Shown here piece after piece: positions 3,696 through 48,531 of a DNA stretch of 64,000 nucleotides. A program made the translations under genes and the position numbers. Within the stretch, counting starts at the first letter, position 1; each line of letters starts with the position of its first letter. Source of the stretch: an uncultured Planctomycetaceae bacterium (GTDB taxonomy: Bacteria > Planctomycetota > Phycisphaerae > Sedimentisphaerales > UBA12454). The stretch spans positions 6,038-70,037 of the forward strand of contig CAYUYR010000008.1 of the NCBI GenBank assembly GCA_964449435.1, read 5' to 3'. The notes under the pieces are model-generated. The model did no database searches. It saw nothing but the letters and a program-made list of their open reading frames with translations, and was not told the origin of the DNA.

Positions 3696-3737
3696 TAAGG
3701 TCTTACTGAAATTATATGTTAACTTTGGGGGATGGGC

Positions 3738-3780
3738 AAAATTATATCTTTTTTTGTTTTTAAAATCAATGGGGAAAAAC
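3738..3780 (-). promoter_or_regulatory. 43-bp promoter module, copy 1 (TTGATT-N17-TATAAT)
   Basis: On the minus strand the -35 TTGATT lies at 3769..3764, the -10 TATAAT at 3746..3741, and the spacer is 17 nt. 41 of 43 positions are identical to 4647-4690. Confidence 0.7.
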
Positions 3781-3811
3781 ACGGAACGAACCCGCCAGCA
3801 GGCAGGCGGGG
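3775..3811 (-). terminator. Hairpin plus T-rich tract downstream of the Abi_C gene
   Basis: The minus strand has cccgcc-tgcctgct-ggcggg followed by ttcgttccgtgttttt. Confidence 0.4.
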
Positions 3812-3881: not shown

Positions 3882-4631
3882 CTATTTACTTCTTTTTTGT
3901 TCCCAAGTTGCTAAAATAAATGTTGCCATTGTTCCTGCTAAATTTACGGCCAATTCAGCATGTCGAGGTAATGGACGAACTGCGACTTTGCTACTCGCAT
4001 GCGCATCACTCAATTTGTTTCTTAAGGAACCTAATCCCTCTATAATTGAATGACATCCACCAAGAATTTGTTTAAACAATCGCTCTGTATGCTGGCTTGG
4101 AGAAAGATTAAGATGATGAGCAACAAGGCTATACAATTTTGGCAAATCGTCTTTGTCCTGATAGGTAATATTACTTTCATCCAGTACATGTTTACAAACA
4201 GCTTCTAGCAGCGTTCTGGCTGAAGTAATTGCACCCTCTGGGTCAGATATTCTTCTATCGAGAGCTTTCTTCCAAGCCATTTGTATAGATGCTGAATCAA
4301 CCGTAGTGAGTTTTTCACTATTCACACTATCGGATGGAGCATGCGAGGATTGCTCCAGAAAGGACAACACAGGATCAAATTGCGCACGTATAAATTCCCG
4401 GCGTTCATCGTAATGAGCAAATTTAGGCTTAATAAATCCCCAAAATTCATCAAGACTTCGACATGACTGGATAAAAATAGGTAATTTTTGATTTAATAAG
4501 GTATTGGCGATAAGTCTTCCTCTAATCTGTTTGTACTCAGCATCAGACGTATTTCCACCAGTTGCTCTTGCTATCAACATATTCTTGAGGCTTTCGACCT
4601 CCATCAATAAGTTTTCAATATCATCAGACAT
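3882..4631 (-). CDS. Abortive-infection-like protein with Abi_C-type C-terminal domain
   Basis: The C-terminal half matches the Abi_C pattern as I recall it: PEGAITSARTLLEAVCKHVL ... IIEGLGSLRNKLSDAHAS ... LPRHAELAVNLAGTMATFILATWE. ATG at 4631 (MSDDIENLL) is preferred as the start. The ORF track begins at TTG 4637. Confidence 0.8.
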   Translation of the reverse strand: MSDDIENLLMEVESLKNMLIARATGGNTSDAEYKQIRGRLIANTLLNQKLPIFIQSCRSLDEFWGFIKPKFAHYDERREFIRAQFDPVLSFLEQSSHAPSDSVNSEKLTTVDSASIQMAWKKALDRRISDPEGAITSARTLLEAVCKHVLDESNITYQDKDDLPKLYSLVAHHLNLSPSQHTERLFKQILGGCHSIIEGLGSLRNKLSDAHASSKVAVRPLPRHAELAVNLAGTMATFILATWEQKRSK

Positions 4632-4646
4632 TGCCAATATTCCTAA

Positions 4647-4690
4647 AAAATTATATCTCTTTTTGTTTTCAAAATCAATGGGGAAAAAAC
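4647..4690 (-). promoter_or_regulatory. 43-bp promoter module, copy 2 (TTGATT-N17-TATAAT)
   Basis: On the minus strand the -35 TTGATT lies at 4678..4673, the -10 TATAAT at 4655..4650, and the spacer is 17 nt. The ATG at 4631 is only about 12 nt from the expected transcription start. Confidence 0.7.
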
Positions 4691-31072: not shown

Positions 31073-31106
31073 ATATTTCCTTACTTCTTTACCTCTTTAC
31101 TTCCTT
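31073..31106 (-). repeat. Purine-rich dispersed module (copy 2), forms the panC translation-initiation region
   Basis: The minus strand reads aaggaagtaaagaggtaaagaagtaaggaaatat and ends 4 nt (agta) before the panC ATG. It is similar to 2585-2626. Confidence 0.6.
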
Positions 31107-33889: not shown

Positions 33890-36800
33890 ATGAATAAGAA
33901 ACTTATCTTCAGTCTCGTATTAACCCTTCTATTAACCACAATCGGCTCATCAGCCACCTTGAATGTACCCGGCGGTTATGCGACCATTCAGGCGGCGATT
34001 ACCGCTGCGGCTTCGGGCGATATCATCGAAGTTGCAGACGGAACATACACCGCAGCCGGATTTTACAATATCGATTTCGGCGGCAAGCTGGTTACTGTCC
34101 GCAACTCAAGCGGAGACCCGACGAAGTGTATAATCGACTGCCAAAACGTCTCCGGCAGGCGCGGATTTTATTTCCATAATTACGAAACTCCGGCCGCCAC
34201 AGTAGAAGGCATTACAATTAAAAACGCTAATGCAGGCGGTTTATATTACGGCGGCGCTATCGAATGCGAAGAGGCCTCGCCGACCATTTCAAATTGTATT
34301 ATCACCAATAACAGCGCAGCTTTCGGCGGCGCTATCGACTGTTTCAACGCTTCGCCAGTTATCAAAAATTGCATCATTACCAATAATACCGCCACTTATG
34401 ACGGCGGCGCAATAGAGTGCAGCTACGACTCCAATCCGCAAATTATAAACTGTCTCATCGCAAACAACACCGCAGGCTATTACGGCGGCGCTATCGACAT
34501 CTATGATTCTTCTTCGCCGACTATCACAAATTGTACTATCGCCGACAATACCGGCAGCGGCGGATTCGGAGGCGTTTATGCCGCTTCCGGCTCAAGCTCT
34601 ACGATTAAAAACTCTATCCTGTGGAACAACGGCGACGATATTTACGGGCCGACAACAGTAACATATTCCTGTATTCAGGACGGCGATGCGGGAACGGGAA
34701 ACATAAATACCGACCCGATGTTTAGAACGGGCCCGCTTGGCAATTATTATTTAAGCCAGATTTCCGCAGGCCAACTGGCCGACAGCAATTGCGTCAATGC
34801 CTGTACGGATTCGGTTGACGACATCTTCGGTCCTGCAAGTACATTCACCACCAGAACCGATAATCAGGCGGACATCGAAAAGGTGGATATGGGATTTCAT
34901 TATCCGGACGGCGGACCTGCCGCACAATGTAAATTGATTGCCGAAGCCGACCCAAGCGATGCCGGAACCGTAAACCCGAATCATCCGTCTCCCGGACAGG
35001 ATTATAAACAATTCAGCGAGATTGTCATACAGGCGACGCCAAACAGCGGCAACAAATTATTCCAATGGATTGATGCAAACACCGCCACGTATAATCCGGC
35101 GGATCCGGGCACATATAATACTACTTCCGGCATAAACGATACGATTACTATAACACTCAACGACGACAAAACAGTAATCGCCGAGTTCAGCACTGTAGCA
35201 ACATATAAACTTATCACTTATGTTATCGGCGACAACGGCGTAATTTCCGATGTCGACCCTAACGACCTGCCCGACCCCTGCGACTCGAGGGCTTATTTCA
35301 TACCGCAGGGTAATTCAGCCACTATAACCGCTCATCCCGATGCGGGATATGTAGTAAAACAATGGCTAAAGGGCGAGACAGCAACTTTCGATATCAACAA
35401 TCCGGACACTTACGAAGTTATTCCAGGCGCTCTCGGAAATACATACACAACAACTATCGATGCTAATACTACCATCACAGTCGAATTTAAGTATCAGGAA
35501 TATCTGCTTACCACCAGCGTTTACAATGGAAACGGCGCAATCAGTCCCAAACGCGGTTATTATCCGGCCGGAACAACCGTCGATCTAACGGCTGCTCCCG
35601 ATGACGGCTATAGAGTCCAGGCATGGGGCGGAGATGCGGCTAATAAGCCTGCATGGAACATTACGACAAACACTGTCGTGATGGACGGCCCCAAAGATGT
35701 TAATGTGGCATTCGAACTCGGACAAAACCAACTAATTCACGTTTTCGGCGATGTGAACGGCATACAGGAGGCTATTGATATCGCAAACAACGGCGACACT
35801 ATACAAATTCATCCCGGAACTTATACAGGAGTTCCAAGTGGTTTTCTGGTAAGCAAAGTTATTACTATTGTCGGCGACCCGGAAAATCCCGAAAATGTCG
35901 TCATAGATTGTGAAACCCAAGGTGGTACTAATCTCGGATTTATTCTCTCCGGCCAATCCGTCACCCTTAACGGCATTACTATAACAGGCGTCAGAAGCCC
36001 CTTGCCAATACCTTACGACAATTACGGCGGCGCAATTTATATCACAGGCAACCATACAGTCAAAAACTGTATTATAAGAAACGCTTTAGCTGAGATAAAT
36101 CCGACGACCGACGGGAGTGCCGGCGGCGACCCAGATGACCCCAATAATCCGGATGCTAATGGCGGCAACGGCGGCGACGGCGGCAGCGCAGGCGGTGCCG
36201 GCATATACGTTCATTCGGGAAATCCATATATTCAAAATGTATTGATTGAAGACTGCTGGGCCATCGGCGGAAACGCAGGAAACGGCGCTCCAGGTTATTC
36301 AGACCAAAACGACTACAACAGTGACGACCCAAACATCATTTATTACCCGCCCGGTATTGCAGGTTATGGCGGAGACGGAGGAGACGCATTTGGAGCAGGG
36401 ATTTACACTGAGGCAGGCAGTCCATATTTTATTAATGTAACTGTCAGAAACTGCGGCGTCCGTGCGGGCAACGGCGGAAACGGAGCAGATGGGTCGGCAG
36501 ATGCAAACGGCGGAGACGGAGGACTGCCGGGAAGAGCGGCAGGGGCGGGTATATACTGCGCAGCCGGTTCGGCATCGGTTTTTTCCAATTGCGTAATTGA
36601 AAACTGCATCGGATATGGCGGCCGCGGCGGAAACGGCGGAAACGCAGGACAATTACAACTGGAAGAACACCGCACGGGCGGTTACGGCGGACTTACCACA
36701 GAAACAGCAGCAGGACAGGGAGACATAAGAATGTACAGCACAAACGGCGGAGCCGTATTCTGTGATGACAATTCAAATCCCGTATTTGATGACTGTACCT

Positions 36801-39800
36801 TCAGAAGCAATATGACTTACGGAAGCATAAGCGGCGTTGGCGGACATCACCAACCGTCCAACACACAAGAAATGCCGCGCGAAAACTACCGCATGCCGAG
36901 TTTCGGTGCAGGAGTTTTCTGCTCAAGGAATACCGCAAGCACTTTCGATAACTGCTTGTTCGAAAACAACAAAACCGCGTATAATCAGGATTTCAACGAC
37001 CCCAATTACCTGGCGGCTGTAGGTCTGGCAGATATAAACGATTACGACGGCGAATACACAGGTCAGGGCGGCGGTTTGTGTCTGTGGTATGCGGCTTCTG
37101 CTGATATTATCGACTGCAATTTCAGTCAGAACTCCGCTCCTATCGGCGGCGGTATATATAGTCTCTGGACGGATTTATATATCACAAAATCCAATATACT
37201 AAATAACGACTCCCTTTCAGGCGGCGGCATCCTCGCGCTGGACAGCGTCGTTGAAATAATAGAATCATCGATAAAGGGCAATTCTGCCGGCACTCAAACC
37301 GGAACCGTAGAAAATACTGGGTACGCTTTGTTCGGCTCAGGCGGCGGCGTATATGCACTTTCATCGTTGATTGACATTAACGACACCGTCGTAACCGAAA
37401 ACTATGCAAGATTGACCGGCGGCGGTATTTGTCTTGACGGCGATACGATATTCGCACAAAAGCCCCTTATAAAGAACTGTCTGATTACGGCCAACACCGC
37501 AGCCGACTCAGGCGGCGGAATCGCTTCGACATATTTCGCCAGGCCGACAATTCAAAACTGTACGCTCGCGGACAACCTTGCAACCGGTGTGAACGGCAGA
37601 GGAGGAGGACTTTTCGGCTCTTATGAAAGCGATACGATTGCCAAAGACTCTATATTCTGGGACAACAGCGGTATTAACGGTTCGCAAATCGCCTTAAGCG
37701 ACGGCGGACTTTTTACCGATATGCCGGCAAGCCTTACAATCTCATACAGCGATATTGACTTGAGGCTGGTGTTTGCTTTGGATTCAATTACATCCAGCTC
37801 AGGAGGTTCCGGCTCAACCTCTGCCCTAATGATTATCGATGAACAAACCATTTATAATGAAATTAACTCATCAGGTTCGGCAACAGTTATTGTAAGTCTT
37901 GACGAACCAGTTGAAGCGCAAACTACAGATTGGTCTTCACCTGATTCGGTGAGCGACCTGCAAAATAAAATCGCAACATTGCAGGACCAGACGCTTTCGA
38001 TATTTACCCCTGACGAATTTACCCTGCGACATAAGCTTACGAACGTAGCGGTTTTCAGCGGTAAGGTAACAAATTCCGGTCTCAGCAAGCTGCTTGATGA
38101 TCCGACGGTTGCTCATATCGAACCGGTAAGAACCGTCCGGCCGATGCTTGCACAGGCTATTCCCTTGGCAAACGCACTTACTACACGGCCAACCTACAAT
38201 GGCCAGGAAGTATCTATCGCCATAGTTGATACGGGTGTAGATTACACTCATCCGAGACTTGGCGGCGGAACTTTCCCGAACAGCAAAATCATCGGCGGTT
38301 ATGATACGGGCAATAATGATGCCGACCCAATACCGGCGGGCGAAGCCCACGGTACAGCCTGTGCCGGTATCGCGGCAGGTCTGCTCGGAACCGTCGGAGA
38401 TTATATCGGCGGTGTCGCTTATGACGCAAAAATATATGCCCTAAAGGCAAGTTTTGACAACACAGATAATTTCTACAACGACGCCACACTGGCTGCATGG
38501 GATTGGTGTATAACACACAGAAACGACAACCCAGAAAATCCAATCAGGGTTATGAGTAATAGTTGGGGTCTTTACGACTATCCAATAGATAACGAGGCAG
38601 AGGCGGACGTACTTTCGCCGGCACATACCATAGCGGCACAAACCGCCGTTAATGCGGGCATAACTATTCTTGCCGCATCGGGCAATGACGGCTTCGCAGG
38701 CGATGGTATCTCCTGGCCGGCAGCAATGTCAAACATAATAAGCGTCGGCGCCGTGTATGACACGACAGATATGGTTGCCGAATATTCCAACACGGCAAAC
38801 ATTCTCGATATTCTCGCTCCTGCCGACCCTGTATATACCACCGATATTGTTGGTTCCGCCGGCTACAGTACCGGTGATTATTATCCATATTTCAACGGTA
38901 CAAGCTCCGCTTGTCCGTTTGCAGCAGGTGCAGTAGCAGCTCTGCAAAGTGCTGCAAAACAAATAACGGGCGACTACTTAACTCCTGTTCAGGTTAAATC
39001 TTTACTGGCTTCAAGCGGCGACCCTGTAACAGACACTAAGGTCACAATAACGAAGCCGAGAGTAAATCTCGGCACTGCAATCACTCTGCTTAATCAGATG
39101 GTACCCGTTCATACCGAAAGAAATTGCACAATAATTGGTATTCAAAAAGACGTAAACGATATGTGGACGGTTGCCGGCGGCAGTAATATATCCGAAGACC
39201 CGAATTTCATACCGGGCATCGGTTATTACTTAAGCCATACCGATACGATGCAAGTCTATACCAGCCCCTGTTTCGACATCGGCAGCACTCCGGCCGTAAA
39301 TCTCGGTCTTGACACTTACACAACCAGAGTTGACGGCTTTAAAGATACTGGAGGTGATGTTGACCTTGGTTATCACTATCTGCAAGGCATAGCCACACGT
39401 TATCAATTAACCGTGGAAATAAGCGACTCGGGCGGTGGAACTATCAAATCGCCTTGGCTGGCCGGCTATACCTATAACATTTACGCAGGGCAAATAATAA
39501 CTTTTGAGGCAGTCCCAGATGCCAACTATAAGGTGGTCAACTGGTTCATTGATGATGTGGGCCAGCAGACCAACAATAATAATTTTACCACAATAATGGA
39601 CAGAAACAGAAAAGTCTCCGTCAGCTTTGAGCCCGTTACTGATGAGACGTATCAGCCAATCAAGCTTTATGTGCCGACTCAATATCCGGATTTAGGCTCC
39701 GCTATCGACGCAGCACAAAACGGAGACCAAATTATTCTGGACACAGGCACATATAGCTGGAACGACAGTAATTTCGATTACACGACAATTTATATAAACG

Positions 39801-42724
39801 GCAAGAATATAACCATAAGAGGCACCGCTCCTGATGACCCCTGTGTTGTCGCTCAGACAGTTATTCTCGGCAACGGGTTCTCTATTTTCAACGTAGATAG
39901 AACCATGACTATCGAAGGAATCACGTTCCAGGATGCCCATTATTACGCAGGAAATGTCGATTGCGGTGTAGAATGGGCTCATAGCGAAGGCGGAGACGGT
40001 TATAACGGCTACAGCATTTTCGGCGGGGCAATGAGGCTCTATAACGCTTCGCCGACAATACGCAATTGCAGATTTGTCAACTGCTCGGCAACGGCAAGCG
40101 ACGGCTGCAACGGAAACGATACAGGCGATGGCGGCTGGGCAGGCTGGGCATATGGCGGAGCCATCGCTATTAACTCATTCAGCAATCCGCTCATTAAAAA
40201 CTGCGACTTTATAGATTGTTATGCACAGAGCGGAAACGGCGGCGACGGCGGAACTGGAAATCCCAACGGCCACGGAGGAAACTGGGGAGACAATACTTCA
40301 AGCAGATGGGACTTCGGACCTTATCAGCCATACTGGTATTACAGCGGCAAAGGTGGTGCGATATACTGCGGCAGCGGAAGCAAGCCGGTTATTGAGAACT
40401 GCTTCTTCTCTGGAAATAACACTTATAGCGGAACAAGCGGTTTGAGTAATATCGATGGTTGGCCCAATTACCACTACGCTATCCCTGCTTTCGGCGGAGC
40501 CGTCTATATCGCCAGAGGCAGCGAAACTAAAATCACAAACTGTATATTCAGCGATAACGAAGCGGATACCCGCGGCCAAATCGGCGACCCAAACACTACA
40601 GATGATTTCGTACTCTACAGCCCGATGGTAAGCTATGGCGGTGCGATTTGTATCGAAAATACGAGCGTCGAAGAAGCCGAGGACACGATTGGGCTTATCG
40701 AAAATAGTACATTCTTCAACAATCGCGCCTGCGCCGGCGGCGGCATTTATCAAAAAGAGGCAACGGCTCACATCATCGATAGTACTTTCGAGAGTTGTAC
40801 CGCTATGACAGGCGGAGCTATGGCGATGATTTCAAACAAGTCTGCCGTCGTCGATTGCGATTTCAGAAATAACAGTGCGATACAGCCGTCAGGTAAAGGC
40901 GGTGCGATATATTCGGAAAGCGATACGATGTTCTATGACTGCCTGATTGCAGCCAATAACGCGGCTGTGGCAGGCGGCGGAGCTTACTTCACAGGTGATT
41001 TCGAGCCTAATATGCATAACTGTCTTATTACAAACAATAACGCAAACAGAGACGGCGCCGGCATATCGGCCAACTGGAACACTGAACTTACAATTTCAAA
41101 CTGTACGCTCGCAAATAATACGATTTTAGGAACCGGCTTTGCCACCGGATACGGCGGCGGTTTAAGCTGTGCCTATGAAGCGTATGTAAAGGTGAACAAC
41201 AGTATTATGTGGAACAATAACGCTGAATATGGCTCGGAAATAGCAATCGGAAATATGTTCGAGGCTGCTGATAAATACGGAGCCCAAGTGGATGTTTCAT
41301 ACAGCGACATAAAAGACGGTCAGGCTGGCATATTTGCCGATACCGAAAACGGCTGTATTCTCAATTGGGACGCAGGCAACTTCAACGGCACAAGTTTGGA
41401 AAGCCCGCTATTCGTTATTGGGCCATGGGGCAACTTCTATCTTAGCCAAACCGCAACTCCGGACGCCAACCAGACAGTGGACAGCCCTTGCGTCGATGCG
41501 GGCTTTGGCTCTGCCATAGACAATAGTATGTATAAACATACTACAAGAACCGACCATATTATTGACGTTACAGATTCAAATGTTGATATGGGTTATCACT
41601 ATACACTGGTTGCCGACCTGCTCGGAGATTTTAATTTTGACGGTATTGTAACCTTTGAAGATTTCGGTCTGTTTATACTGTTCTGGCTGGACGACGGCTG
41701 CACTTTCCCATATTACTGTGCAGGTCGAGACCTGAATAAAGACGGCAGAGTGGATTTTGAAGATTTTGCTCTCTTTGCCGAGAACTACGGCAAGACGGAG
41801 ACTATTCCGCCAAGACCGAACCCAATGACATGGGCATTATCTCCTCGTTCGGCAGACTCGAACTCAATTACAATGACCGCGACCACGGCAATAGATAATT
41901 CAAGCCCGATTATCGAATACTATTTCGAGTGCACTTCCGGCGGCGGCAATAATCGCGGCTGGAACACAGACACAAGTTATACGGATACCGGCCTAACTCA
42001 TGGACAACTGTACGGTTATCGCGTTAAGGCCAGAGACGCCAAACATAACGAAACCGGCTGGAGTGTTATTGGTTACGCAGTGCCCGGCGACGATAGTACT
42101 CCGCCGGAACCAAACCCGATGACATGGGCAACGGCGCCTTACGCTACATCGAGCAGCTCGATTCGTATGATTGCGTCAACCGCCACAGACATTTCCGACG
42201 TCGAATATTACTTCGAGGAAACAAGCGGTAATCCGGATGGAACAACCAGCGGCTGGCAGGATAGTCCGATATATGAAGACTTCGGCCTTTCGCCGAGTAC
42301 TGAATATAGTTATAGAGTCAAAGCCCGCGATAAATCGCCTGCTCAGAATCAAACCGGCTACTCAGACATAGCATCAGCTATGACTGATGATGATGATGGT
42401 ACTGAGCCGACAGAAGATACTGTCCCGCCGGAACCTAATCCGAGCCAGTGGGAAAGCACGCCACTGGCTTACTATGACGGACAATTTTATTACCATACTA
42501 TGACCGCCATCGAAGCGACGGACGACAGTCTGCCTGTTTACTACTACTTCGAATGCACTGACGGTGCCGGCACAAGCAGCAATTGGCAGACAGACCCGAC
42601 CTATACAGCAGGGCCTTACCTTGTCGAGAACTACAGCGTGTATAGGGTCTGGACAAAAGACGCTCTGGGCAATACCGGCTCGCCATCGCCCAAATACGAC
42701 ACAAACGGGCAATTAGTTCCCTGA
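33890..42724 (+). CDS. Giant secreted multidomain protein (2944 aa): parallel beta-helix repeats, Ig-like repeats, subtilase S8 domain, dockerin-like repeats, 3 FN3-like modules
   Basis: Signal peptide MNKKLIFSLVLTLLLTTIGSSA (the in-frame ATG at 33830 is an alternative start). Dozens of PbH1-type rungs (NNSAAFGGAIDC..., NNTATYDGGAIEC...). See the sub-features for the other domains. A terminator follows. Confidence 0.9.
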   Translation: MNKKLIFSLVLTLLLTTIGSSATLNVPGGYATIQAAITAAASGDIIEVADGTYTAAGFYNIDFGGKLVTVRNSSGDPTKCIIDCQNVSGRRGFYFHNYETPAATVEGITIKNANAGGLYYGGAIECEEASPTISNCIITNNSAAFGGAIDCFNASPVIKNCIITNNTATYDGGAIECSYDSNPQIINCLIANNTAGYYGGAIDIYDSSSPTITNCTIADNTGSGGFGGVYAASGSSSTIKNSILWNNGDDIYGPTTVTYSCIQDGDAGTGNINTDPMFRTGPLGNYYLSQISAGQLADSNCVNACTDSVDDIFGPASTFTTRTDNQADIEKVDMGFHYPDGGPAAQCKLIAEADPSDAGTVNPNHPSPGQDYKQFSEIVIQATPNSGNKLFQWIDANTATYNPADPGTYNTTSGINDTITITLNDDKTVIAEFSTVATYKLITYVIGDNGVISDVDPNDLPDPCDSRAYFIPQGNSATITAHPDAGYVVKQWLKGETATFDINNPDTYEVIPGALGNTYTTTIDANTTITVEFKYQEYLLTTSVYNGNGAISPKRGYYPAGTTVDLTAAPDDGYRVQAWGGDAANKPAWNITTNTVVMDGPKDVNVAFELGQNQLIHVFGDVNGIQEAIDIANNGDTIQIHPGTYTGVPSGFLVSKVITIVGDPENPENVVIDCETQGGTNLGFILSGQSVTLNGITITGVRSPLPIPYDNYGGAIYITGNHTVKNCIIRNALAEINPTTDGSAGGDPDDPNNPDANGGNGGDGGSAGGAGIYVHSGNPYIQNVLIEDCWAIGGNAGNGAPGYSDQNDYNSDDPNIIYYPPGIAGYGGDGGDAFGAGIYTEAGSPYFINVTVRNCGVRAGNGGNGADGSADANGGDGGLPGRAAGAGIYCAAGSASVFSNCVIENCIGYGGRGGNGGNAGQLQLEEHRTGGYGGLTTETAAGQGDIRMYSTNGGAVFCDDNSNPVFDDCTFRSNMTYGSISGVGGHHQPSNTQEMPRENYRMPSFGAGVFCSRNTASTFDNCLFENNKTAYNQDFNDPNYLAAVGLADINDYDGEYTGQGGGLCLWYAASADIIDCNFSQNSAPIGGGIYSLWTDLYITKSNILNNDSLSGGGILALDSVVEIIESSIKGNSAGTQTGTVENTGYALFGSGGGVYALSSLIDINDTVVTENYARLTGGGICLDGDTIFAQKPLIKNCLITANTAADSGGGIASTYFARPTIQNCTLADNLATGVNGRGGGLFGSYESDTIAKDSIFWDNSGINGSQIALSDGGLFTDMPASLTISYSDIDLRLVFALDSITSSSGGSGSTSALMIIDEQTIYNEINSSGSATVIVSLDEPVEAQTTDWSSPDSVSDLQNKIATLQDQTLSIFTPDEFTLRHKLTNVAVFSGKVTNSGLSKLLDDPTVAHIEPVRTVRPMLAQAIPLANALTTRPTYNGQEVSIAIVDTGVDYTHPRLGGGTFPNSKIIGGYDTGNNDADPIPAGEAHGTACAGIAAGLLGTVGDYIGGVAYDAKIYALKASFDNTDNFYNDATLAAWDWCITHRNDNPENPIRVMSNSWGLYDYPIDNEAEADVLSPAHTIAAQTAVNAGITILAASGNDGFAGDGISWPAAMSNIISVGAVYDTTDMVAEYSNTANILDILAPADPVYTTDIVGSAGYSTGDYYPYFNGTSSACPFAAGAVAALQSAAKQITGDYLTPVQVKSLLASSGDPVTDTKVTITKPRVNLGTAITLLNQMVPVHTERNCTIIGIQKDVNDMWTVAGGSNISEDPNFIPGIGYYLSHTDTMQVYTSPCFDIGSTPAVNLGLDTYTTRVDGFKDTGGDVDLGYHYLQGIATRYQLTVEISDSGGGTIKSPWLAGYTYNIYAGQIITFEAVPDANYKVVNWFIDDVGQQTNNNNFTTIMDRNRKVSVSFEPVTDETYQPIKLYVPTQYPDLGSAIDAAQNGDQIILDTGTYSWNDSNFDYTTIYINGKNITIRGTAPDDPCVVAQTVILGNGFSIFNVDRTMTIEGITFQDAHYYAGNVDCGVEWAHSEGGDGYNGYSIFGGAMRLYNASPTIRNCRFVNCSATASDGCNGNDTGDGGWAGWAYGGAIAINSFSNPLIKNCDFIDCYAQSGNGGDGGTGNPNGHGGNWGDNTSSRWDFGPYQPYWYYSGKGGAIYCGSGSKPVIENCFFSGNNTYSGTSGLSNIDGWPNYHYAIPAFGGAVYIARGSETKITNCIFSDNEADTRGQIGDPNTTDDFVLYSPMVSYGGAICIENTSVEEAEDTIGLIENSTFFNNRACAGGGIYQKEATAHIIDSTFESCTAMTGGAMAMISNKSAVVDCDFRNNSAIQPSGKGGAIYSESDTMFYDCLIAANNAAVAGGGAYFTGDFEPNMHNCLITNNNANRDGAGISANWNTELTISNCTLANNTILGTGFATGYGGGLSCAYEAYVKVNNSIMWNNNAEYGSEIAIGNMFEAADKYGAQVDVSYSDIKDGQAGIFADTENGCILNWDAGNFNGTSLESPLFVIGPWGNFYLSQTATPDANQTVDSPCVDAGFGSAIDNSMYKHTTRTDHIIDVTDSNVDMGYHYTLVADLLGDFNFDGIVTFEDFGLFILFWLDDGCTFPYYCAGRDLNKDGRVDFEDFALFAENYGKTETIPPRPNPMTWALSPRSADSNSITMTATTAIDNSSPIIEYYFECTSGGGNNRGWNTDTSYTDTGLTHGQLYGYRVKARDAKHNETGWSVIGYAVPGDDSTPPEPNPMTWATAPYATSSSSIRMIASTATDISDVEYYFEETSGNPDGTTSGWQDSPIYEDFGLSPSTEYSYRVKARDKSPAQNQTGYSDIASAMTDDDDGTEPTEDTVPPEPNPSQWESTPLAYYDGQFYYHTMTAIEATDDSLPVYYYFECTDGAGTSSNWQTDPTYTAGPYLVENYSVYRVWTKDALGNTGSPSPKYDTNGQLVP
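38190..39070 (+). other. Subtilisin-like (S8) peptidase domain inside the giant ORF
   Basis: Catalytic triad context: AIVDTGVDYTHP (Asp codon 38228-38230), EAHGTACAGIAAG (His codon 38348-38350) and NGTSSACPFAAGAVAAL (Ser codon 38903-38905). Confidence 0.85.
41624..41792 (+). other. Dockerin-like double EF-hand repeat inside the giant ORF
   Basis: GDFNFDGIVTFEDFGLF and DLNKDGRVDFEDFALF are a duplicated Ca-binding D-x-N/D-x-D-G motif. Confidence 0.7.
41800..42700 (+). repeat. Three tandem FN3-like modules (coding repeat) at the C-terminus of the giant ORF
   Basis: Each module starts PP(R/E)PNP(MTW/SQW) and ends Y(G/S)YRVKARD or YRVWTKD. Confidence 0.75.
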
Positions 42725-42748
42725 TATTAAAACAAGTAAAAACACAAA

Positions 42749-42776
42749 GCCCTCGTCAAAAACGAGGGCTTTTTTA
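42749..42776 (+). terminator. Rho-independent terminator of the giant gene
   Basis: GCCCTCG-tcaaaaa-CGAGGGC followed by tttttt. Confidence 0.85.
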
Positions 42777-42843: not shown

Positions 42844-42872
42844 TTGACAGCAACAAGGGTAAATAATATTAT
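42844..42872 (+). promoter_or_regulatory. Putative sigma-70 promoter of the kinase operon (TTGACA-N17-TATTAT)
   Basis: The -35 TTGACA lies at 42844-42849 and the -10 TATTAT at 42867-42872. Confidence 0.5.
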
Positions 42873-43031
42873 GTGTGGTTTGGAGCAAAAGGCTTTTTCA
42901 GCAATGGCGGGCATTCCATAAGATTAGTTCAGCAGCAATGGATAAAATAGACAAAGAGCCGGGGTACCGTTTTGCCCTTTTGCTTTGAATTTTCAAGTTC
43001 AACCGGATTTTTGAGGGATATTTATAAAGCT

Positions 43032-45380
43032 ATGAAAGCAAAAAGGTTCAAGAGGCCGTTTCCGGCAGTTAAAACGGCGCTCGAATTCGTAATCATCCTT
43101 TCCGCCGCTATGGTCTTGTTCTCGATAATAGATTTTCTGGGGGGATTTGACCGGCTTTACGAGCTCCCTGCCCAGCAGCACGAGGGGGTTTATAAATGCC
43201 TATTGATTACAGCATTTCTCGCGGCGGCATTGCTCGTCTGTTCAGTCAGAAAGCTGCTTGAAGTACGAAAGGCATATAAAAAACTGGCTCAATCAGAAGA
43301 ACAGCTTCGTTTCCAATCCGTCTTGCTCGATGAAATCGGCGACGGTATTACAGCTACCGACTTCGAAGGAAATATAACTTATGTGAACAAGGCGCAATGC
43401 GACAGGGTCAAAAGGGACAGAAGCGAACTCCTCGGACAATCAACCAAAATTTACGGTGAGGACTCCGAGCTGGGCACAACGCAAAAAGAGCTTATTCAGA
43501 CTACCCTTGAAAAAGGCAGATGGTCGGGCGAAATTGTCAATACCGCATCCGACGGCAGAAAAATCACCGTTGAATGCCATACGTGGCTGATGAAAGACAA
43601 AGACGGCAAACCGACAGGAATGTGCGGTGTAGCAAGGGATATAACCGAGAAAAAACTACAAGAACGGAACATCTCGAAACACAGGCGTTATCTCGAAGCC
43701 CTTGATAAAACCACCGGCATCCTTTTGAATTCGATAACAGAGCTCAAATATGATGAATTTCTGGCCGCATTAGGACCTGCCTCCGATGCCGATAGAGTGC
43801 ACATATTTTTAAAACCTGCCGACGAGGCGAATGTTCCGCTAAGACAAAAAACGCAGTGGTGCCGCAGTGAAAAAATCCAGCCTGTACCAACCAAACTAAC
43901 TGAAAAACGCTTTCTCGCGGACATTTCCCCGCAATGGCAGAAAGTATTGGCGACAGGAAAACATTTATGCTTCAGCAAAGATAATTTTCCGCCCGAACAG
44001 CTCGACTTTTGGGAGTCGCTGAATATAAAGGCGCTGCTAATCGTCCCCATAAAAATTGACGGACAATTAAGCGGCTTTATGAGTTTCGACAACTGTACAG
44101 AAGCCCGTCAATGGACAGAATCTGAAATTGATTTTCTCAGTACTGCCGCAAATAATCTGGCAATGACGACAAAACGTCTTGATATTAAAAAAGAACTAAA
44201 ACAACAGCGGGACTTCGCTCAAAGACTGATTGAAACCGCACAAACCATTGTCCTTGTTTTGGATGCCAATGCCGATATCGTAACGTTTAATCCGTATTTT
44301 GAAAAACTGACGGGCTATAAGCTCGATGAAGTAAAGGGTAAAAACTGGTTCAATACTTTCCTGCCCGAAGAAGACAGACAAAAAATCAACCAGATATTTA
44401 AAAAAGCAATTAATGAAATATGCATAGACGGCAATGTTAATCCGATAGTTATAAAAGATGGCCGTCTTAAACAGATAGAATGGTATGCCCGAACTCTCAG
44501 AGACGAACAGGCTCAAGTTGTCGGTATTCTTTCGACTGGTCAGGATATTACCGAACGATTAAAAGCCGAAGAAGAACTCAAACAGGCTCATCTCGAACTC
44601 GAACAAAGAGTTATCCAGCGTACCGCTGCATTGCAGCAGGTAAACACTCAGCTTTTAAGAACCATCGAGGAAAAAGACCACATCCAGAAAGTTTTGCAGG
44701 AAACCGAAAAGCTGGCCGGGGCCGGCAAACTGGCGGCGCAAATAGCACACGAGATTAATAATCCGCTTGCAGGGATTAAAAATTCCTTCCTGCTCTTAAA
44801 AGACGCAATTCCGAGCGATTATAAATATTTCGAGTATGTCGGCAGAATCGAAAAGGAAATCGCTCGCGTCTCGAATATTGTCCAGCAGATGTTCGAGCTT
44901 TACCGGCCAGGCACACATCCGGCGGACAAATTCGATGTGCGTGAGGTTATCGGGGATATAATCGAACTTCTTAGAACTGCCGGCAGGGAAAAATGCATAC
45001 ATATCGAAATTTCCTGCCCCGATGACATAGTCGCTACGCTGCCGGAGGCGCTTTTCAGGCAGGTAATGTATAATCTCATTCAAAATGCCGTTCAGTTCTC
45101 GCCCTCGAAAGGCACTATTAAAATCGCCGCGTCAAAAACCGGCTCAAAACTTAAAATCGAGGTCAGCGACGAGGGTCCCGGCGTCGATGAAAAAATCAGG
45201 CAAAAGATTTTCGAGCCTTTCTTTACCACCGGCACCAGCACAAGCGGACTGGGGCTGGGACTGTCCATAACAAAAGATATTATCAACGCAATGGAAGGTA
45301 AAATACATTTTGAAAACCGAAGTCCTAAAGGCACTACATTCACTATTTTGATACCCATAATAAATGAGTCTAAAGCCTGA
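43032..45380 (+). CDS. Sensor histidine kinase (2 TM, PAS, GAF-like, PAS, HisKA, HATPase_c)
   Basis: Start MKAKRFKRP (the ORF track starts at TTG 42972). H-box AAQIAHEINNPLAGIKNS, N-box MYNLIQNAVQFSP, G-boxes VSDEGPGV and GLGLGLSITKDII. PAS-like segments include SVLLDEIGDGITATDFEGNITYVN and RLIETAQTIVLVLDANADIVTFN. Confidence 0.9.
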   Translation: MKAKRFKRPFPAVKTALEFVIILSAAMVLFSIIDFLGGFDRLYELPAQQHEGVYKCLLITAFLAAALLVCSVRKLLEVRKAYKKLAQSEEQLRFQSVLLDEIGDGITATDFEGNITYVNKAQCDRVKRDRSELLGQSTKIYGEDSELGTTQKELIQTTLEKGRWSGEIVNTASDGRKITVECHTWLMKDKDGKPTGMCGVARDITEKKLQERNISKHRRYLEALDKTTGILLNSITELKYDEFLAALGPASDADRVHIFLKPADEANVPLRQKTQWCRSEKIQPVPTKLTEKRFLADISPQWQKVLATGKHLCFSKDNFPPEQLDFWESLNIKALLIVPIKIDGQLSGFMSFDNCTEARQWTESEIDFLSTAANNLAMTTKRLDIKKELKQQRDFAQRLIETAQTIVLVLDANADIVTFNPYFEKLTGYKLDEVKGKNWFNTFLPEEDRQKINQIFKKAINEICIDGNVNPIVIKDGRLKQIEWYARTLRDEQAQVVGILSTGQDITERLKAEEELKQAHLELEQRVIQRTAALQQVNTQLLRTIEEKDHIQKVLQETEKLAGAGKLAAQIAHEINNPLAGIKNSFLLLKDAIPSDYKYFEYVGRIEKEIARVSNIVQQMFELYRPGTHPADKFDVREVIGDIIELLRTAGREKCIHIEISCPDDIVATLPEALFRQVMYNLIQNAVQFSPSKGTIKIAASKTGSKLKIEVSDEGPGVDEKIRQKIFEPFFTTGTSTSGLGLGLSITKDIINAMEGKIHFENRSPKGTTFTILIPIINESKA

Positions 45381-46125
45381 CAGTACGTCTGGAAATATCC
45401 TTCTGGCGGATGACGAAAAAACCTTTTTGTCGGCAACGGCACAATTGCTGCGAAATGAAGGTTTTTTGTGCGACTGCGCGGAAAACGCCGAGCAGGCACT
45501 TGAAAAACTCGCCAAAAAACCTTACGCTCTTTTAATTGCCGATATCAAAATGCCCGGCAATTCAAATCTCGAACTCGTTAAAAAAACCGCTGCTCACAGC
45601 CCTGCGACAAGCATTATTCTTATAACCGGCTCTCCATCTCAAAAAACAGCCATCGCGGCGGTTCAATTGCCTATCACAGCATATATACTCAAGCCGATTA
45701 ACTTTCCGGAATTTATGCAGCAAGTCAAATCGGCTGTAAAAATAAGTACGCTTTACAGAATAATATCGAAAACCAAAGATAATCTTGCCAAATGGGCAGA
45801 CGAACTGGAGAACATCGAGCTTTCTCTTGGGCATAACAGAGGCGATGTGTTCGGAGCCGCACTAAAAAGTTTTCTGGATATTACTACCGCTAAAATCGAC
45901 GAAACATTCGATAATATCCGTCTTGTTTCAGGACTACTCGACGAAGCTGAATCCCCTGCCGAAGTTTGCCAGGTTATGCAGTGTCCCATATTATTGGAAC
46001 TTACAGAAGGCATACGAACGGCAATACAATCCATAAAGAAAAGCAGAGAAATATACAAATCGAAACAGTTGGCTGAAATAAGGACAAAACTCGAAAAATT
46101 ACTCGATAATGCCCGGAAATTTTAA
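45364..46125 (+). CDS. Response regulator: REC domain plus uncharacterised helical Cys-containing C-terminal domain (paralog 1)
   Basis: ILLADDEKTF, YALLIADIKMPG (phospho-Asp context) and YILKPINF. The C-terminal roughly 120 aa carry VCQVMQCPILLELTEGIRTAIQSIKKSREIYKSKQLAEIRTKLEKLL. Overlaps the kinase stop by 17 nt. Confidence 0.85.
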   Translation: MSLKPDSTSGNILLADDEKTFLSATAQLLRNEGFLCDCAENAEQALEKLAKKPYALLIADIKMPGNSNLELVKKTAAHSPATSIILITGSPSQKTAIAAVQLPITAYILKPINFPEFMQQVKSAVKISTLYRIISKTKDNLAKWADELENIELSLGHNRGDVFGAALKSFLDITTAKIDETFDNIRLVSGLLDEAESPAEVCQVMQCPILLELTEGIRTAIQSIKKSREIYKSKQLAEIRTKLEKLLDNARKF

Positions 46126-46169
46126 TGTCTTTTTATCGGAATGACCGATAATATAGTCAGTGGCCTCTG

Positions 46170-46198
46170 TTGTGGCTAAAATAGGTTAAAGGTACAAT
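46170..46198 (+). promoter_or_regulatory. Possible promoter of the recombinase gene (TTGTGG-N17-TACAAT)
   Basis: Hexamers and spacer read directly from the sequence. The -35 is weak. Confidence 0.3.
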
Positions 46199-46261
46199 GC
46201 TCATTGCTTATAGCGTAGAACATTAAGTGTTCTGTGTTATGGAAGCGCCTGGGGGCAAATT

Positions 46262-47188
46262 TTGCGAGATTGCGACCTTGAAAATGAGTTTATTAAATTT
46301 ATCAGTTACGGCAAACATCGAGCGGAAAACACGATAAGCAGCTACAGAAGCGACCTTGAACAATTTGTAAAATTTCTGAGCTGCGATGAGATTGCCGAGG
46401 CTGAAAAGTTAGAGGATATTTTCGTCTCCGGACAAAACTCGAATCAGCGGGAATCGCTCTTGGCCGGCGCTGATACAGGGAAAATAAGGGCGTTTCTGGA
46501 CTTTTTGCAAAAAAGCAATTACTCCGCAGCCTCTATAAGACGAAAATTCGCAACCCTTATCTGCTTTTATAATTTTCTCACATCGCAGCATTGGATAAAT
46601 GATAACCCCACAACCGGCATTGAGCCGCCGCAAGTTCAAAGATGCAGACCAAAAATACTCACTGAAGAGCGAATATGGCAAATACTCCATCTGCCGAATC
46701 TTGATAACTGGGTCGGGGCAAGAGACCGGGCTATGCTCGAACTATTGTGCTGTACCGGAATCCGCATAAGCGAACTGATAAAACTCGATATAAATGATGT
46801 CGATTTGACTGATTTACGGCTTAAAATTACATCTCCCAACAGGAAAAAAAGAACTCTGGACATTACGGCAACCGCGGCCCAGACAATCAATTACTATTTA
46901 AAACTAATGCAAAGGGAAATCGGCTTCGACATTGAAAATCCCCAAAATCCTCTTTTTGTCAATAGATTCGGCAAAAGGCTCGATGCAAGAAGTGCCGACA
47001 GAAGGATTGAAAAGTATATTTCTCTGGCCGGGCTGGACAAATCAATTACCCCATACAATTTCAGACATACTTTCGCCCAAAAATTGCTGCGTCAAGGCGC
47101 AGGTATTGAGCGGCTGGAGCATCTCCTCGGCTTCGGGTCGAATTCGGCGGCACAATTATATATAGAATCCTTAAAGACAGCAAAATAA
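46262..47188 (+). CDS. Tyrosine recombinase, XerC/XerD-like but with divergent active-site histidines
   Basis: TTG start. N-terminal SAM-like domain (FIKFISYGKHRAENTISSYRSDLEQFVKFL). Box I is TGIRISELIKL. Box II is YNFRHTFAQKLL...LLGFGSNSAAQLY. Arg, Arg and Tyr are kept, while the His positions read Y and F. Confidence 0.8.
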   Translation: MRDCDLENEFIKFISYGKHRAENTISSYRSDLEQFVKFLSCDEIAEAEKLEDIFVSGQNSNQRESLLAGADTGKIRAFLDFLQKSNYSAASIRRKFATLICFYNFLTSQHWINDNPTTGIEPPQVQRCRPKILTEERIWQILHLPNLDNWVGARDRAMLELLCCTGIRISELIKLDINDVDLTDLRLKITSPNRKKRTLDITATAAQTINYYLKLMQREIGFDIENPQNPLFVNRFGKRLDARSADRRIEKYISLAGLDKSITPYNFRHTFAQKLLRQGAGIERLEHLLGFGSNSAAQLYIESLKTAK

Positions 47189-47208
47189 CTTCTTGTCTCA
47201 AAGTTTTC

Positions 47209-47246
47209 TTGCAATTATTATAATAAAGACTTAAAATGTCATTTTA
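47209..47246 (+). promoter_or_regulatory. Putative promoter of REC paralog 2 (TTGCAA-N17-TAAAAT) with a 15-bp palindrome over the -10
   Basis: The -35 lies at 47209-47214 and the -10 at 47232-47237. The palindrome taaaatg-t-catttta spans 47232-47246. Confidence 0.45.
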
Positions 47247-47288
47247 TAGAAGATTCAACTATCGGGTTTAACTCAGAAGGAGATTGTT

Positions 47289-48035
47289 ATGGCTGAAGCC
47301 GAGCGAATTCTGCTTGCAGATGATGAACAGACTTTTTGCGATTCTACGGGCGAGCTGCTCAGACGGGAAGGATATATCTGCGACTGTGTGCCGGACGCCC
47401 CTGCCGCCATTGAAAAACTTAAACAGCATTCCTACGATGTGATTATCGCGGATATAAAAATGCCCGGCAATCCGAAACTGGAGCTGATTAAAGAACTGCC
47501 CATACTGGCAAAAGGCGCTTTCGCAATTCTCGTTACCGCTTATCCGACACAAAAGACCGCTATCGAAGCCATCCGACTGCCTGTTGCGGCATATATGGTA
47601 AAACCAATCAATTTCGACGAGCTGAAGAACAATGTCGCTGCGGCAATTAAGCAGAAAAAACTTTTTCAAACTGTTTTGGAGACAAAAAATCGACTCTCGC
47701 AATGGCAAAAACAAATGCAGGGAATGGAGCAAATCCTTGCAAAACAAAATGCTCCGACTTTTTCCGCTTCTGTCAGAAATTTTTTAGATTTGACGCTATG
47801 CAACATAAGCACCGCATTTATGGATGTAAAAAATCTCGTTCAGACGCTGGCGGACGACCAAAAAAAATCGGCAGTCTGCAACCTTATGAACTGCCCAAAG
47901 CTCAATGAGATGACAGAAGGCCTGAACGAAACAATCAAAACTCTCGAACTGACAAAAAGCTCTTTCAAGTCCAAGGAATTAGGACAATTAAGAATAAAAC
48001 TCGCACAACTGCTGAAAAAGGCGAAAAAAACTTAA
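47289..48035 (+). CDS. Response regulator: REC domain plus uncharacterised helical Cys-containing C-terminal domain (paralog 2)
   Basis: ILLADDEQTF, YDVIIADIKMPG and YMVKPINF. The C-terminal VCNLMNCPKLNEMTEGLNETIKTLELTKSSFKSKELGQLRIKLAQLL is colinear with paralog 1. Confidence 0.85.
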   Translation: MAEAERILLADDEQTFCDSTGELLRREGYICDCVPDAPAAIEKLKQHSYDVIIADIKMPGNPKLELIKELPILAKGAFAILVTAYPTQKTAIEAIRLPVAAYMVKPINFDELKNNVAAAIKQKKLFQTVLETKNRLSQWQKQMQGMEQILAKQNAPTFSASVRNFLDLTLCNISTAFMDVKNLVQTLADDQKKSAVCNLMNCPKLNEMTEGLNETIKTLELTKSSFKSKELGQLRIKLAQLLKKAKKT

Positions 48036-48114
48036 ATTCCCGTCAGAATTTGCCGATAATAGAATTGAAGAGTGAAACAGCCGCCTTTGCGGACGATTTA
48101 AGATTCGTAAGTAG

Positions 48115-48152
48115 AAGGCACGACCCTGAAAAAACAAGGTTGTGCCTTTTTA
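48115..48152 (+). terminator. Rho-independent terminator after REC paralog 2
   Basis: AAGGCACGACC-ctgaaaaaacaa-GGTTGTGCCTT (one G-U pair) followed by tttt. Confidence 0.7.
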
Positions 48153-48198
48153 TTTAGTATTTTAAGACCAAAAAAAGCGACAATTAGGAGAAAGTATC

Positions 48199-48531
48199 CT
48201 GGACTTATACACAGCATTATCGGTATTCGTATCGGCCACTCCGAAGCTGATTAACAGTATTTGTGACGCGATAAAAGCAAACGATTTGGCTCAACTTGAA
48301 GAGCTAACGGCAAAATTAATCGCATACAGCCGTCAGGCTCAAATGCCGAACTTTGCCGAAAAAGTTAAAAACATAGTTATCGCCGTCAGAGAGAATAAAA
48401 CAGACACAGCGGAAAAACACGCCCATTCATTAAGGCAATGCCTCGAACAAATGGCAAGAGCAACCGGAGCCGGCTTACTTGAGGAACACGACAGAAGTCC
48501 GAACTGCTGTCCGCTTACAGCGAAAGATTAA
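48199..48531 (+). CDS. Hpt-like four-helix protein lacking the phospho-accepting His
   Basis: The frame is open from 48166. AGGAGA at 48186-48191 precedes CTG 48199, and the ORF track starts at TTG 48286. The pattern FVSATPKLINSICDAIKANDLAQLEELTAKLIAYSRQAQMPNFAEK mirrors Hpt (..AHxLKGSA..), but it reads AKLIAY. Confidence 0.5.
   Translation: MDLYTALSVFVSATPKLINSICDAIKANDLAQLEELTAKLIAYSRQAQMPNFAEKVKNIVIAVRENKTDTAEKHAHSLRQCLEQMARATGAGLLEEHDRSPNCCPLTAKD

Follow-up and report, generated by a model that had tools for sequence, protein, structure and literature searches.

We analyzed a 64,000-nucleotide stretch of DNA (hereafter the window) from contig CAYUYR010000008.1 of an uncultured Planctomycetaceae bacterium, in which the gene for a giant secreted protein is followed by a signaling locus. 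The locus contains genes for a sensor histidine kinase (HK), two paralogous response regulators (REC-X1 and REC-X2, or X1 and X2), a tyrosine recombinase encoded between the two regulators, and a small protein that resembles Hpt proteins without their phosphorylatable histidine (Table 1). A preliminary description of this locus had proposed the five genes, together with their domain assignments. All five open reading frames (ORFs) are present at the coordinates it gave, its domain assignments are supported, and the same layout is found in ~17 divergent lineages. This recurrence rules out chance as the source of the arrangement.

We fetched ~100 related loci (designated L002, L004, and so on), mapped the window proteins onto each, and viewed ~20 kb per locus. 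The closest public relative is the metagenome-assembled genome (MAG) HGW-Planctomycetes-1 (L006), whose X1 is 94% identical to that of the window. The order giant exoprotein–HK–REC-X1–REC-X2 is kept in the ~17 divergent lineages, all Sedimentisphaerales/Phycisphaerae, with X1 identity as low as 48%. In every related locus, X1 is preceded by an ortholog of HK. Homologs of the giant gene lie upstream of HK in L002-L016, L019, L084, and L085, and a giant beta-helix/S8 homolog precedes the block in all of the ~17 lineages except L017. As the genes 3′ of the block vary between loci (SIS/MetXW/NuoF in some, a DEAD_2 helicase in others), the giant gene–HK–X1–X2 block represents more than general synteny. 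The preliminary description had named conserved gene order and linkage to giant beta-helix genes among the checks on its proposal, and a lack of synteny in every relative among the findings that would refute it; both the order and the linkage, here to giant beta-helix/S8 genes, were found in relatives.

The two remaining components vary independently. L010 and L012 contain the recombinase gene without the Hpt-like gene and its leader, while L013, L014, and L016 contain the leader and Hpt-like gene without the recombinase. Thus, the invariant core consists of the giant gene, the kinase, X1, and X2.

Table 1. Features of the signaling locus and of the adjacent giant gene (positions are those of the window)
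Feature	Coordinates	Strand	Basis and remarks
Giant secreted protein gene, 2944 aa from ATG at 33890	33890..42724	+	Signal-peptide-like N terminus; right-handed beta-helix repeats, Flg_new_2, subtilase S8, fn3
Intrinsic-terminator-like hairpin after giant gene	42746..42772	+	Sequence; 11-12 bp stem and T-run
Sigma-70-like promoter match upstream of HK	42844..42872	+	TTGACA-17-TATTAT, 11/12; consensus match only
Sensor histidine kinase HK, PAS-GAF-PAS-HisKA-HATPase_c	43032..45380	+	Pfam/NCBIfam domains; alternative upstream TTG at 42972 possible
REC-X1, receiver and helical X domain	45364..46125	+	CX4CP at C202/C207; KSKxLxxxR at 232-240; start overlaps HK stop by 17 nt
Conserved 5′ region of recombinase gene	46126..46261	+	Includes dyad TTATCGG-N5-CCGATAA (46133-46151); right arm holds -10-like GATAAT
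Xer-derived tyrosine recombinase, locus-specific	46262..47188	+	R168, K195, R268, Y300 kept; His-III = Phe291; without XerC-type C-terminal tail
REC-X2, X1 paralog	47289..48035	+	42% identical to X1; copy nearer the wider REC-X family
Structured leader of Hpt-like gene	48047..48151	+	Conservation and covariation; CCGATAAT box 48053-48060, hairpin P1 48086-48115, terminator hairpin 48117-48146, T-run 48147-48151
His-less Hpt-like protein, ~111 aa (predicted start)	48196..48531	+	AGGAG 48186-48190, then in-frame ATC/CTG (48196/48199); Ala39 in phospho-His column

The kinase and the two regulators share many features with orthodox two-component systems, in which a HisKA kinase is paired with a receiver (REC) protein. 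HK scores above the cut-off for the HisKA class (PF00512, 38.9 bits, cut-off 26.9) and matches HATPase_c (PF02518, 92.2 bits), and the kinase and regulator genes are translationally coupled. Both regulators match the receiver family (PF00072, 74.3 and 70.7 bits) and retain its acidic pair (D16/D17), phospho-Asp (D60), Thr (T88), and Lys (K110), which are invariant in a set of 31 sequences and likewise in a set of 101. As two hydrophobic segments at the N terminus of HK are only ~15 residues apart, sensing by the kinase is probably cytoplasmic. The locus departs from the orthodox systems in having two ancient paralogous regulators per kinase and in the output of these regulators, a ~140-residue helical bundle with CX4CP and KSKxLxxxR motifs that has no relative in Pfam, NCBIfam, or the PDB.

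X1 and X2 align over their full length (E 7e-72), and REC is the sole part of either that Pfam or NCBIfam recognizes. The C-terminal ~140 residues, which we call the X domain, form five helices in two AlphaFold models (pLDDT ~82). This domain belongs to no Pfam family, resembles no solved structure in sequence, and has no significant neighbor in a Foldseek search of the PDB (best E 0.5). The preliminary description had noted that these proteins lack a recognizable DNA-binding output, and our searches agree: no DNA-binding or ATPase output of the OmpR, NarL, NtrC, or similar types was recognizable, with NCBIfam matches that cover REC only and fall far under their cut-offs. ANTAR (PF03861) gave no match in 26 X domains at E <= 1, and no ANTAR structure was present among the Foldseek PDB matches.

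We scored conservation of the X-domain motifs on 101 REC-X proteins, in which the motif residues are kept in 95-101 sequences. The near-invariant positions are C202 and C207 (both in 99 of 101), P208, K232, S233 (all 101), K234, L236, and R240. Altogether, REC-X proteins contain three to four conserved cysteines, split between the receiver (C36/C38, with C36 in 90 of the 101) and the X domain (C202/C207). The near-invariant pair of the X domain suggests a metal or redox site, and the pattern of conserved cysteines suggests that they could form a metal, Fe-S, or disulfide site.

The architecture extends beyond planctomycetes: a genome scan identified 260 full-length REC-X relatives in Gemmatimonadota, Eisenbacteria, KSB1, Zixibacteria, Latescibacterota, and others, and the X domain is widespread in Planctomycetota, Gemmatimonadota, and MAGs of the FCB group. 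Outside Sedimentisphaerales, the sole recurrent neighbor of REC-X is a kinase encoded immediately upstream; clustering the neighborhoods of distant REC-X loci revealed no recurrent partner besides this kinase. In trees of the two regulators, the X1 clade and the X2 clade are each monophyletic over all 14 lineages, with congruent topologies; X2 groups with the wider REC-X family and X1 is the divergent copy. Since each copy is monophyletic across the 14 lineages, the duplication is an old one, and the ancestor of the group already had X1 and X2.

The small gene is the one member of the locus whose boundaries required revision. The ORF as listed (48286-48531, TTG start, 81 amino acids [aa]) has no Hpt match. 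Conservation reaches ~30 codons upstream of this TTG (LDLYTALS.F....P.LI..I.DA), so the conserved protein begins earlier than the listed ORF. No ATG, GTG, or TTG occurs in this upstream stretch (within 48166-48285) in the window or in L006, and a Shine-Dalgarno-like AGGAG precedes in-frame ATC and CTG codons, which suggests that the gene uses a non-canonical start at 48196/48199. Public annotations of the protein from the window's subclade are truncated (62-81 aa). The family has ~40 members, all unannotated and all on contigs that carry the REC-X pair.

With the N-terminal extension, the family matches PF01627 (Hpt) more often than any other Pfam entry: five of 11 members match it across the full length of the Pfam model, at scores below threshold. 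In an exhaustive profile search of 1.84 billion proteins, the nearest sequences outside the family were true Hpt proteins (P0292, P0293, P0295, and P0296, E 4e-4 to 8e-4), which score 42-55 bits on PF01627 (cut-off 24.6). In a gap-free alignment, the phospho-His of these proteins (within TAHSL, LAHKL, SAHSL, or TAHHL) corresponds to Ala39 in the window and to Ala, Thr, or Ser across the family. The small protein is thus related to Hpt by profile and lacks the phospho-accepting His of helix 2. Judged by this alignment, the preliminary designation of a His-less Hpt-like protein appears correct. A comparison of the family profile with an approximate E. coli CheA P1 query, which the profile search supersedes, was not significant (Prob 0.2). 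As a separate observation, the C-terminal ~80 residues of P0294, an 898-aa hybrid kinase (GAF-HisKA-HATPase-REC), match the His-less Hpt profile and not PF01627. A manual alignment places Gln in the phospho-His position, and this region may be another His-less Hpt-like domain.

Since its phospho-His is replaced, the small protein should be unable to relay phosphate. In this respect it resembles the AHP6-type pseudo-Hpt of Arabidopsis: it is Hpt-related, the phospho-His is replaced by Ala, Thr, or Ser, and it is expected, by analogy, to act by binding receivers. It differs from AHP6 in that it is bacterial, is free-standing at ~110 aa, is limited to one planctomycete clade, and is encoded behind a structured terminator leader. 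In our search of the literature, the concept of a pseudo-Hpt was found in plant papers only. The small protein would provide a bacterial example of a His-less Hpt.

The leader lies in the spacer between X2 and the small gene, which is conserved at the nucleotide level among lineages whose proteins are only ~50% identical. The invariant boxes CCUUURCG...GUAAGYAGAAGG form hairpin P1, and the terminator stem that abuts it varies freely. The window leader folds better than all 200 of 200 shuffles (z = -3.99). Among 16 distinct leader sequences, 97.4% of cells are consistent with the pairing, versus 32-50% with slid partners. Six pairs show compensatory changes, and none of 500 shuffles reaches the observed covariation score. 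Each of 14 loci, and likewise the window, has a single copy of the motif, always in the interval from X2 to the small gene; loci that lack the small gene also lack the motif. We observed it in this spacer in L002, L004-L006, L008, L013, L014, L016-L019, L057, L084-L090, and L092-L102, and never in 64 distant REC-X loci. A metagenome scan yielded 17 matches: 16 share the spacer context, and the other is a coding sequence that matches by chance. Rfam 15 produced no match in the window at the gathering score and only chance-level matches over 47980-48300.

As the T-run is only ~30 nt from the Shine-Dalgarno box in the window, the small gene is probably expressed by read-through, which would make the leader an attenuator or riboswitch-like element. 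Alternatively, the leader could be a separate small RNA. Similar to other terminator-based leaders, such as riboswitches and ANTAR- or protein-dependent attenuators, it contains a covariation-supported hairpin that abuts a terminator between a candidate promoter box and a gene. Unlike them, it has no Rfam match, and the REC-X output is not ANTAR. We identified no convincing alternative antiterminator pairing in the leader. By these features it is a candidate new cis-regulatory RNA, supported by covariation and not in Rfam.

The recombinase belongs to the tyrosine recombinase superfamily (PF00589, Phage_integrase, 105.7 bits), and its Arg-I (R168), Lys (K195), Arg-II (R268), and nucleophile (Y300) are invariant. 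All orthologs have Tyr or Phe in place of His-II and Phe in place of His-III. Among tyrosine recombinases, 6.8% have Tyr at His-II. Cre is active in vivo with every H289 substitution other than D, E, K, R, or W, and with W315F/Y it is nearly wild-type in vivo (PMC2943603). As Cre tolerates substitutions at the positions of His-II and His-III, those in the recombinase do not imply inactivity. An exact-sequence look-up of the recombinase found no record, probably owing to a difference in the called start. Among solved structures, chain 14 of PDB 9i5v (400 aa, labeled RaiA, from the Porphyromonas gingivalis ribosome) aligned with the recombinase over nearly its full length (E 7.5e-16); the accompanying paper modeled 34 residues of that protein and does not mention a recombinase-like body.

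The nearest relatives of the recombinase are chromosomal XerC and XerD, and even the best matches in phages and plasmids do not exceed 33% identity. This low identity, together with divergence that tracks the neighboring genes and the finding of no att repeats, argues against the integrase of an integrative mobile element. With the XerC/XerD dimer resolvases, its closest relatives by sequence, the recombinase shares the fold, the two-domain architecture, and the Arg-I/Lys/Arg-II/Tyr residues. It differs in forming a separate clade, in its altered His-II and His-III positions, in the absence of the C-terminal tail, in its fixed position between two response-regulator genes, and in being dispensable in many lineages.

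Every recombinase ortholog with visible context sits between X1 and X2. Many further orthologs lie on contigs whose lengths exactly match those of X1 homologs, and none was found in another genomic context. Thus, the placement of the recombinase between two regulator paralogs, which the preliminary description had singled out, is the only one in which it occurs. The recombinase diverges in step with its neighbors (88, 72, 55, and 48% identity), and its ratio of nonsynonymous to synonymous substitution rates (dN/dS, 0.14-0.19) is like those of X1 and X2, indicating purifying selection.

When placed on the tree of X1 and X2, the recombinase is present in one large clade and absent from several of its members and from basal lineages. 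It is absent or decayed in L007, L009, L011, L013, L014, L015, L016, and L017, reflecting loss or decay in at least five lineages, and it therefore does not show the universal single-copy retention that characterizes XerC and XerD. L011 contains a remnant of 34 aa that is 68% identical to recombinase residues 242-275, together with a decayed 5′ region. Decayed copies of the 5′ region also persist in L015 and L017, which lack the recombinase and retain the 5′ box of its gene. The preliminary description had raised the possibility that the recombinase and X2 arrived as one inserted unit. This is refuted, as X1 and X2 are both ancestral in the 14 lineages and are adjacent in basal lineages; the variable part of the interval is the recombinase only, sometimes with other cargo. 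The X1-X2 spacer is also an insertion hot spot for other genes, with an extra S8 peptidase (911 aa) at L002:11091-13826 and a MacB/FtsX-type permease (466 aa) at L007:10906-12306.

The 5′ region of the recombinase gene contains a dyad, TTATCGG-N5-CCGATAA, that is kept in all eight recombinase-positive lineages examined. It is present once per locus, at the same position in L002, L006, L008, L010, L012, L084, L089, L097, and L099, and the window contains no other complete copy. We considered whether this 5′ region is a structured RNA and rejected the idea, as the covariation term is ~0. The right arm of the dyad, CCGATAAT, recurs upstream of the Hpt-gene leader, also in recombinase-negative lineages, and this octamer is enriched window-wide, coding DNA included (12 copies versus 3.4 expected). 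Since the octamer is enriched across the window and kept without the recombinase, a promoter or operator is the more economical reading, and for the same reasons we rejected the CCGATAAT box as a recombination site.

The preliminary description had also suggested that the recombinase controls a local switch. Invertible or excisable switches of the fim, hin, or shufflon type require paired recombination sites, and these were not found. Our scans for inverted or direct repeats found no credible pair around the recombinase, around the operon, at the promoter of the giant gene, or elsewhere in the 64-kb window, although sites shorter than ~9 nt, or partners outside the sequence, may escape them. 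A search for 12-mers common to the recombinase-positive lineages returned the Hpt leader and no recombinase site. None of the ~17 lineages has an inverted segment or a change in gene orientation. With no repeat pair, a dyad in single copy, and one orientation in every relative, the suggested switch is unsupported.

We consider it somewhat more likely than not that Sedimentisphaerales-type Phycisphaerae share, at this locus, a conserved two-component module that is genetically linked to a giant secreted subtilase/beta-helix protein and consists of a REC-X core with two independent accessories and no local switch. A membrane-anchored kinase with cytoplasmic PAS-GAF-PAS sensors would phosphorylate both REC-X receivers. 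Phosphorylation would then alter the contacts of the X domain with partner proteins, or the state of a Cys-bound metal or redox site, rather than DNA binding. Like AHP6, the His-less Hpt paralog most likely binds the receivers and modulates them without being phosphorylated itself; its synthesis would be gated by the structured leader that ends in a terminator. The recombinase would descend from a Xer protein that an ancestor acquired in the interval between X1 and X2; since then it would have been passed on vertically, maintained by purifying selection, and lost several times over. Binding to DNA is probably retained, either at the conserved dyad of its own promoter, which is the strongest candidate, or at a distant site. 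The signaling core would not depend on the recombinase, which would operate no invertible or excisable switch at the locus. From the linkage, the predicted target of the module is the adjacent giant exoprotein.

Other explanations of the locus differ mainly in the role they assign to the recombinase. That it is a plain housekeeping XerC or XerD can be practically dismissed. Its best NCBIfam matches are indeed XerD and XerC, and its closest solved structure is E. coli XerD, but it falls below both equivalog cut-offs (TIGR02225, 207.7 versus 329.6; TIGR02224, 196.3 versus 335.15). In a profile search, ~35 orthologs score 375-605 bits, followed by a gap to matches of at most 299 bits at ~36% identity. 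These lower matches include several proteins from Sedimentisphaerales, Phycisphaerae, and Anaerohalosphaeraceae that NCBI names XerC. The XerC proteins of these orders thus form a separate, canonical group, with the motifs SPHTLRH...LLGH...YTH and a KExYxxAHPR tail, whereas the clade at our locus has PY/FxLRH...LGF...Y and no tail. The substitution of both catalytic His residues and the loss of the gene from many lineages also argue against a housekeeping role, as does its fixed locus; the preliminary description had named identity with XerC/XerD as a finding that would undermine it, and this is not what we observe. Phase variation, with the recombinase inverting or excising DNA from which the giant gene or the operon is controlled, is very improbable. 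In its favor, giant proteins of the cell surface are textbook targets of phase variation, the recombinase keeps its catalytic Tyr and Lys and both Arg residues without exception, and work on Cre indicates that its His substitutions need not abolish activity. However, as described above, neither the locus, the giant-gene promoter, nor the rest of the window contains a repeat pair, the dyad is single-copy, and no lineage has an inverted segment. Moreover, when the recombinase is lost, all else is unchanged.

A stronger contender, though still an unlikely one, is that the recombinase is the leftover of an old insertion at the hot spot, with no role in signaling, and is kept for unrelated and possibly trans-acting recombination or only transiently. 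Consistent with this, the X1-X2 spacer carries different cargo in different lineages (the L002 peptidase and the L007 permease), and the recombinase is patchy on the tree, with repeated loss and decay in place. A leftover is harder to reconcile with a gene that tracks its neighbors through deep divergence, has a dN/dS as low as X1 and X2, keeps a conserved 5′ region, is nearest to chromosomal XerC/D rather than to phage or plasmid proteins, and has no orthologs found elsewhere. We regard as rather doubtful the converse idea that the pathway has the recombinase as its effector on DNA, either because phosphorylated REC-X proteins control its recombination or because it has become a domesticated DNA-binding partner or repressor at CCGATAA-type sites. 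It has the only DNA-binding fold in the operon, is confined strictly between the REC-X genes, is under purifying selection, and has a conserved dyad at its own promoter, with the same half-site at the head of the Hpt-gene leader. There are also precedents. ArcA is described as an accessory factor for XerCD at psi, and MrpR (YopR) of phage SPbeta is a tyrosine-recombinase fold that works as a repressor (PMC10516654). Our recombinase resembles MrpR in its altered active site and in the dyad at its promoter, and differs in its invariant Arg pair and nucleophile Tyr, with which it may well have kept its activity. Against an effector role, the gene is lost or decayed in at least five lineages with HK, X1, and X2 intact, REC-X proteins flourish in other phyla in its absence, lineages devoid of the recombinase still have the half-site in front of the leader, and the enrichment of CCGATAAT elsewhere in the window, including coding DNA, suggests a promoter-type motif. 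A fuller version of this idea, in which phosphorylated REC-X proteins would recruit or license the recombinase at CCGATAA-type sites for signal-dependent recombination or transcriptional control of the giant locus, while the attenuator-gated His-less Hpt protein tunes the receivers, seems to us slightly more doubtful again.

Several observations weigh against the module of REC-X core and dispensable accessories that we favor. The recombinase keeps its R-K-R-Y residues and a conserved, apparently regulated 5′ region, and its target may lie beyond the ~20 kb viewed at each locus. The link to the giant gene might reflect nothing more than conserved synteny. A strong terminator and a promoter-like site split the giant gene and the kinase operon into two transcription units, and control of the giant gene by the module is a prediction from linkage. 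For the Hpt homology, the evidence comprises sub-threshold Pfam scores and E values of 4e-4 to 8e-4 from the search of a very large library. The X-domain models are of moderate confidence (pTM 0.48-0.66 with the pLDDT given above) and include a low-confidence region around C202. Finally, our trees are neighbor-joining trees of short proteins from MAGs.

Two-component systems, Hpt relatives, tyrosine recombinases, and terminator-containing leaders are all familiar, and each part of the module belongs to one of these types. As far as the tools we used show, four features are undescribed: the X output domain, a family of pseudo-Hpt proteins in bacteria, the RNA leader, and the fixation of a Xer paralog within a signaling operon. 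The X domain represents a new response-regulator output domain, in no domain library, of a widespread family with more than 260 relatives. The recombinase, a Xer paralog that has departed from chromosome maintenance and settled in this operon, is a tractable case for following the fate of a recombinase fold after duplication. The tight linkage of the module to giant subtilase/beta-helix proteins offers an entry to the regulation of these poorly understood proteins in uncultured planctomycetes.

The window contains two further sets of repeats, both distant from the signaling locus. Two 42-nt direct repeats (3738-3779 and 4647-4688) are 95% identical and 909 nt apart; they lie in a low-GC stretch (0.37) and adjoin two adjacent minus-strand ORFs (2769-3782 and 3882-4637). 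In addition, a 30-nt purine-rich motif, AAGGAAGTAAGGATGTAAAGAAGTAAAGAA, is found at 2585-2614 and 31077-31106 as an inverted pair that is 90% complementary, with the two copies 28 kb apart and each located just past the end of a gene.

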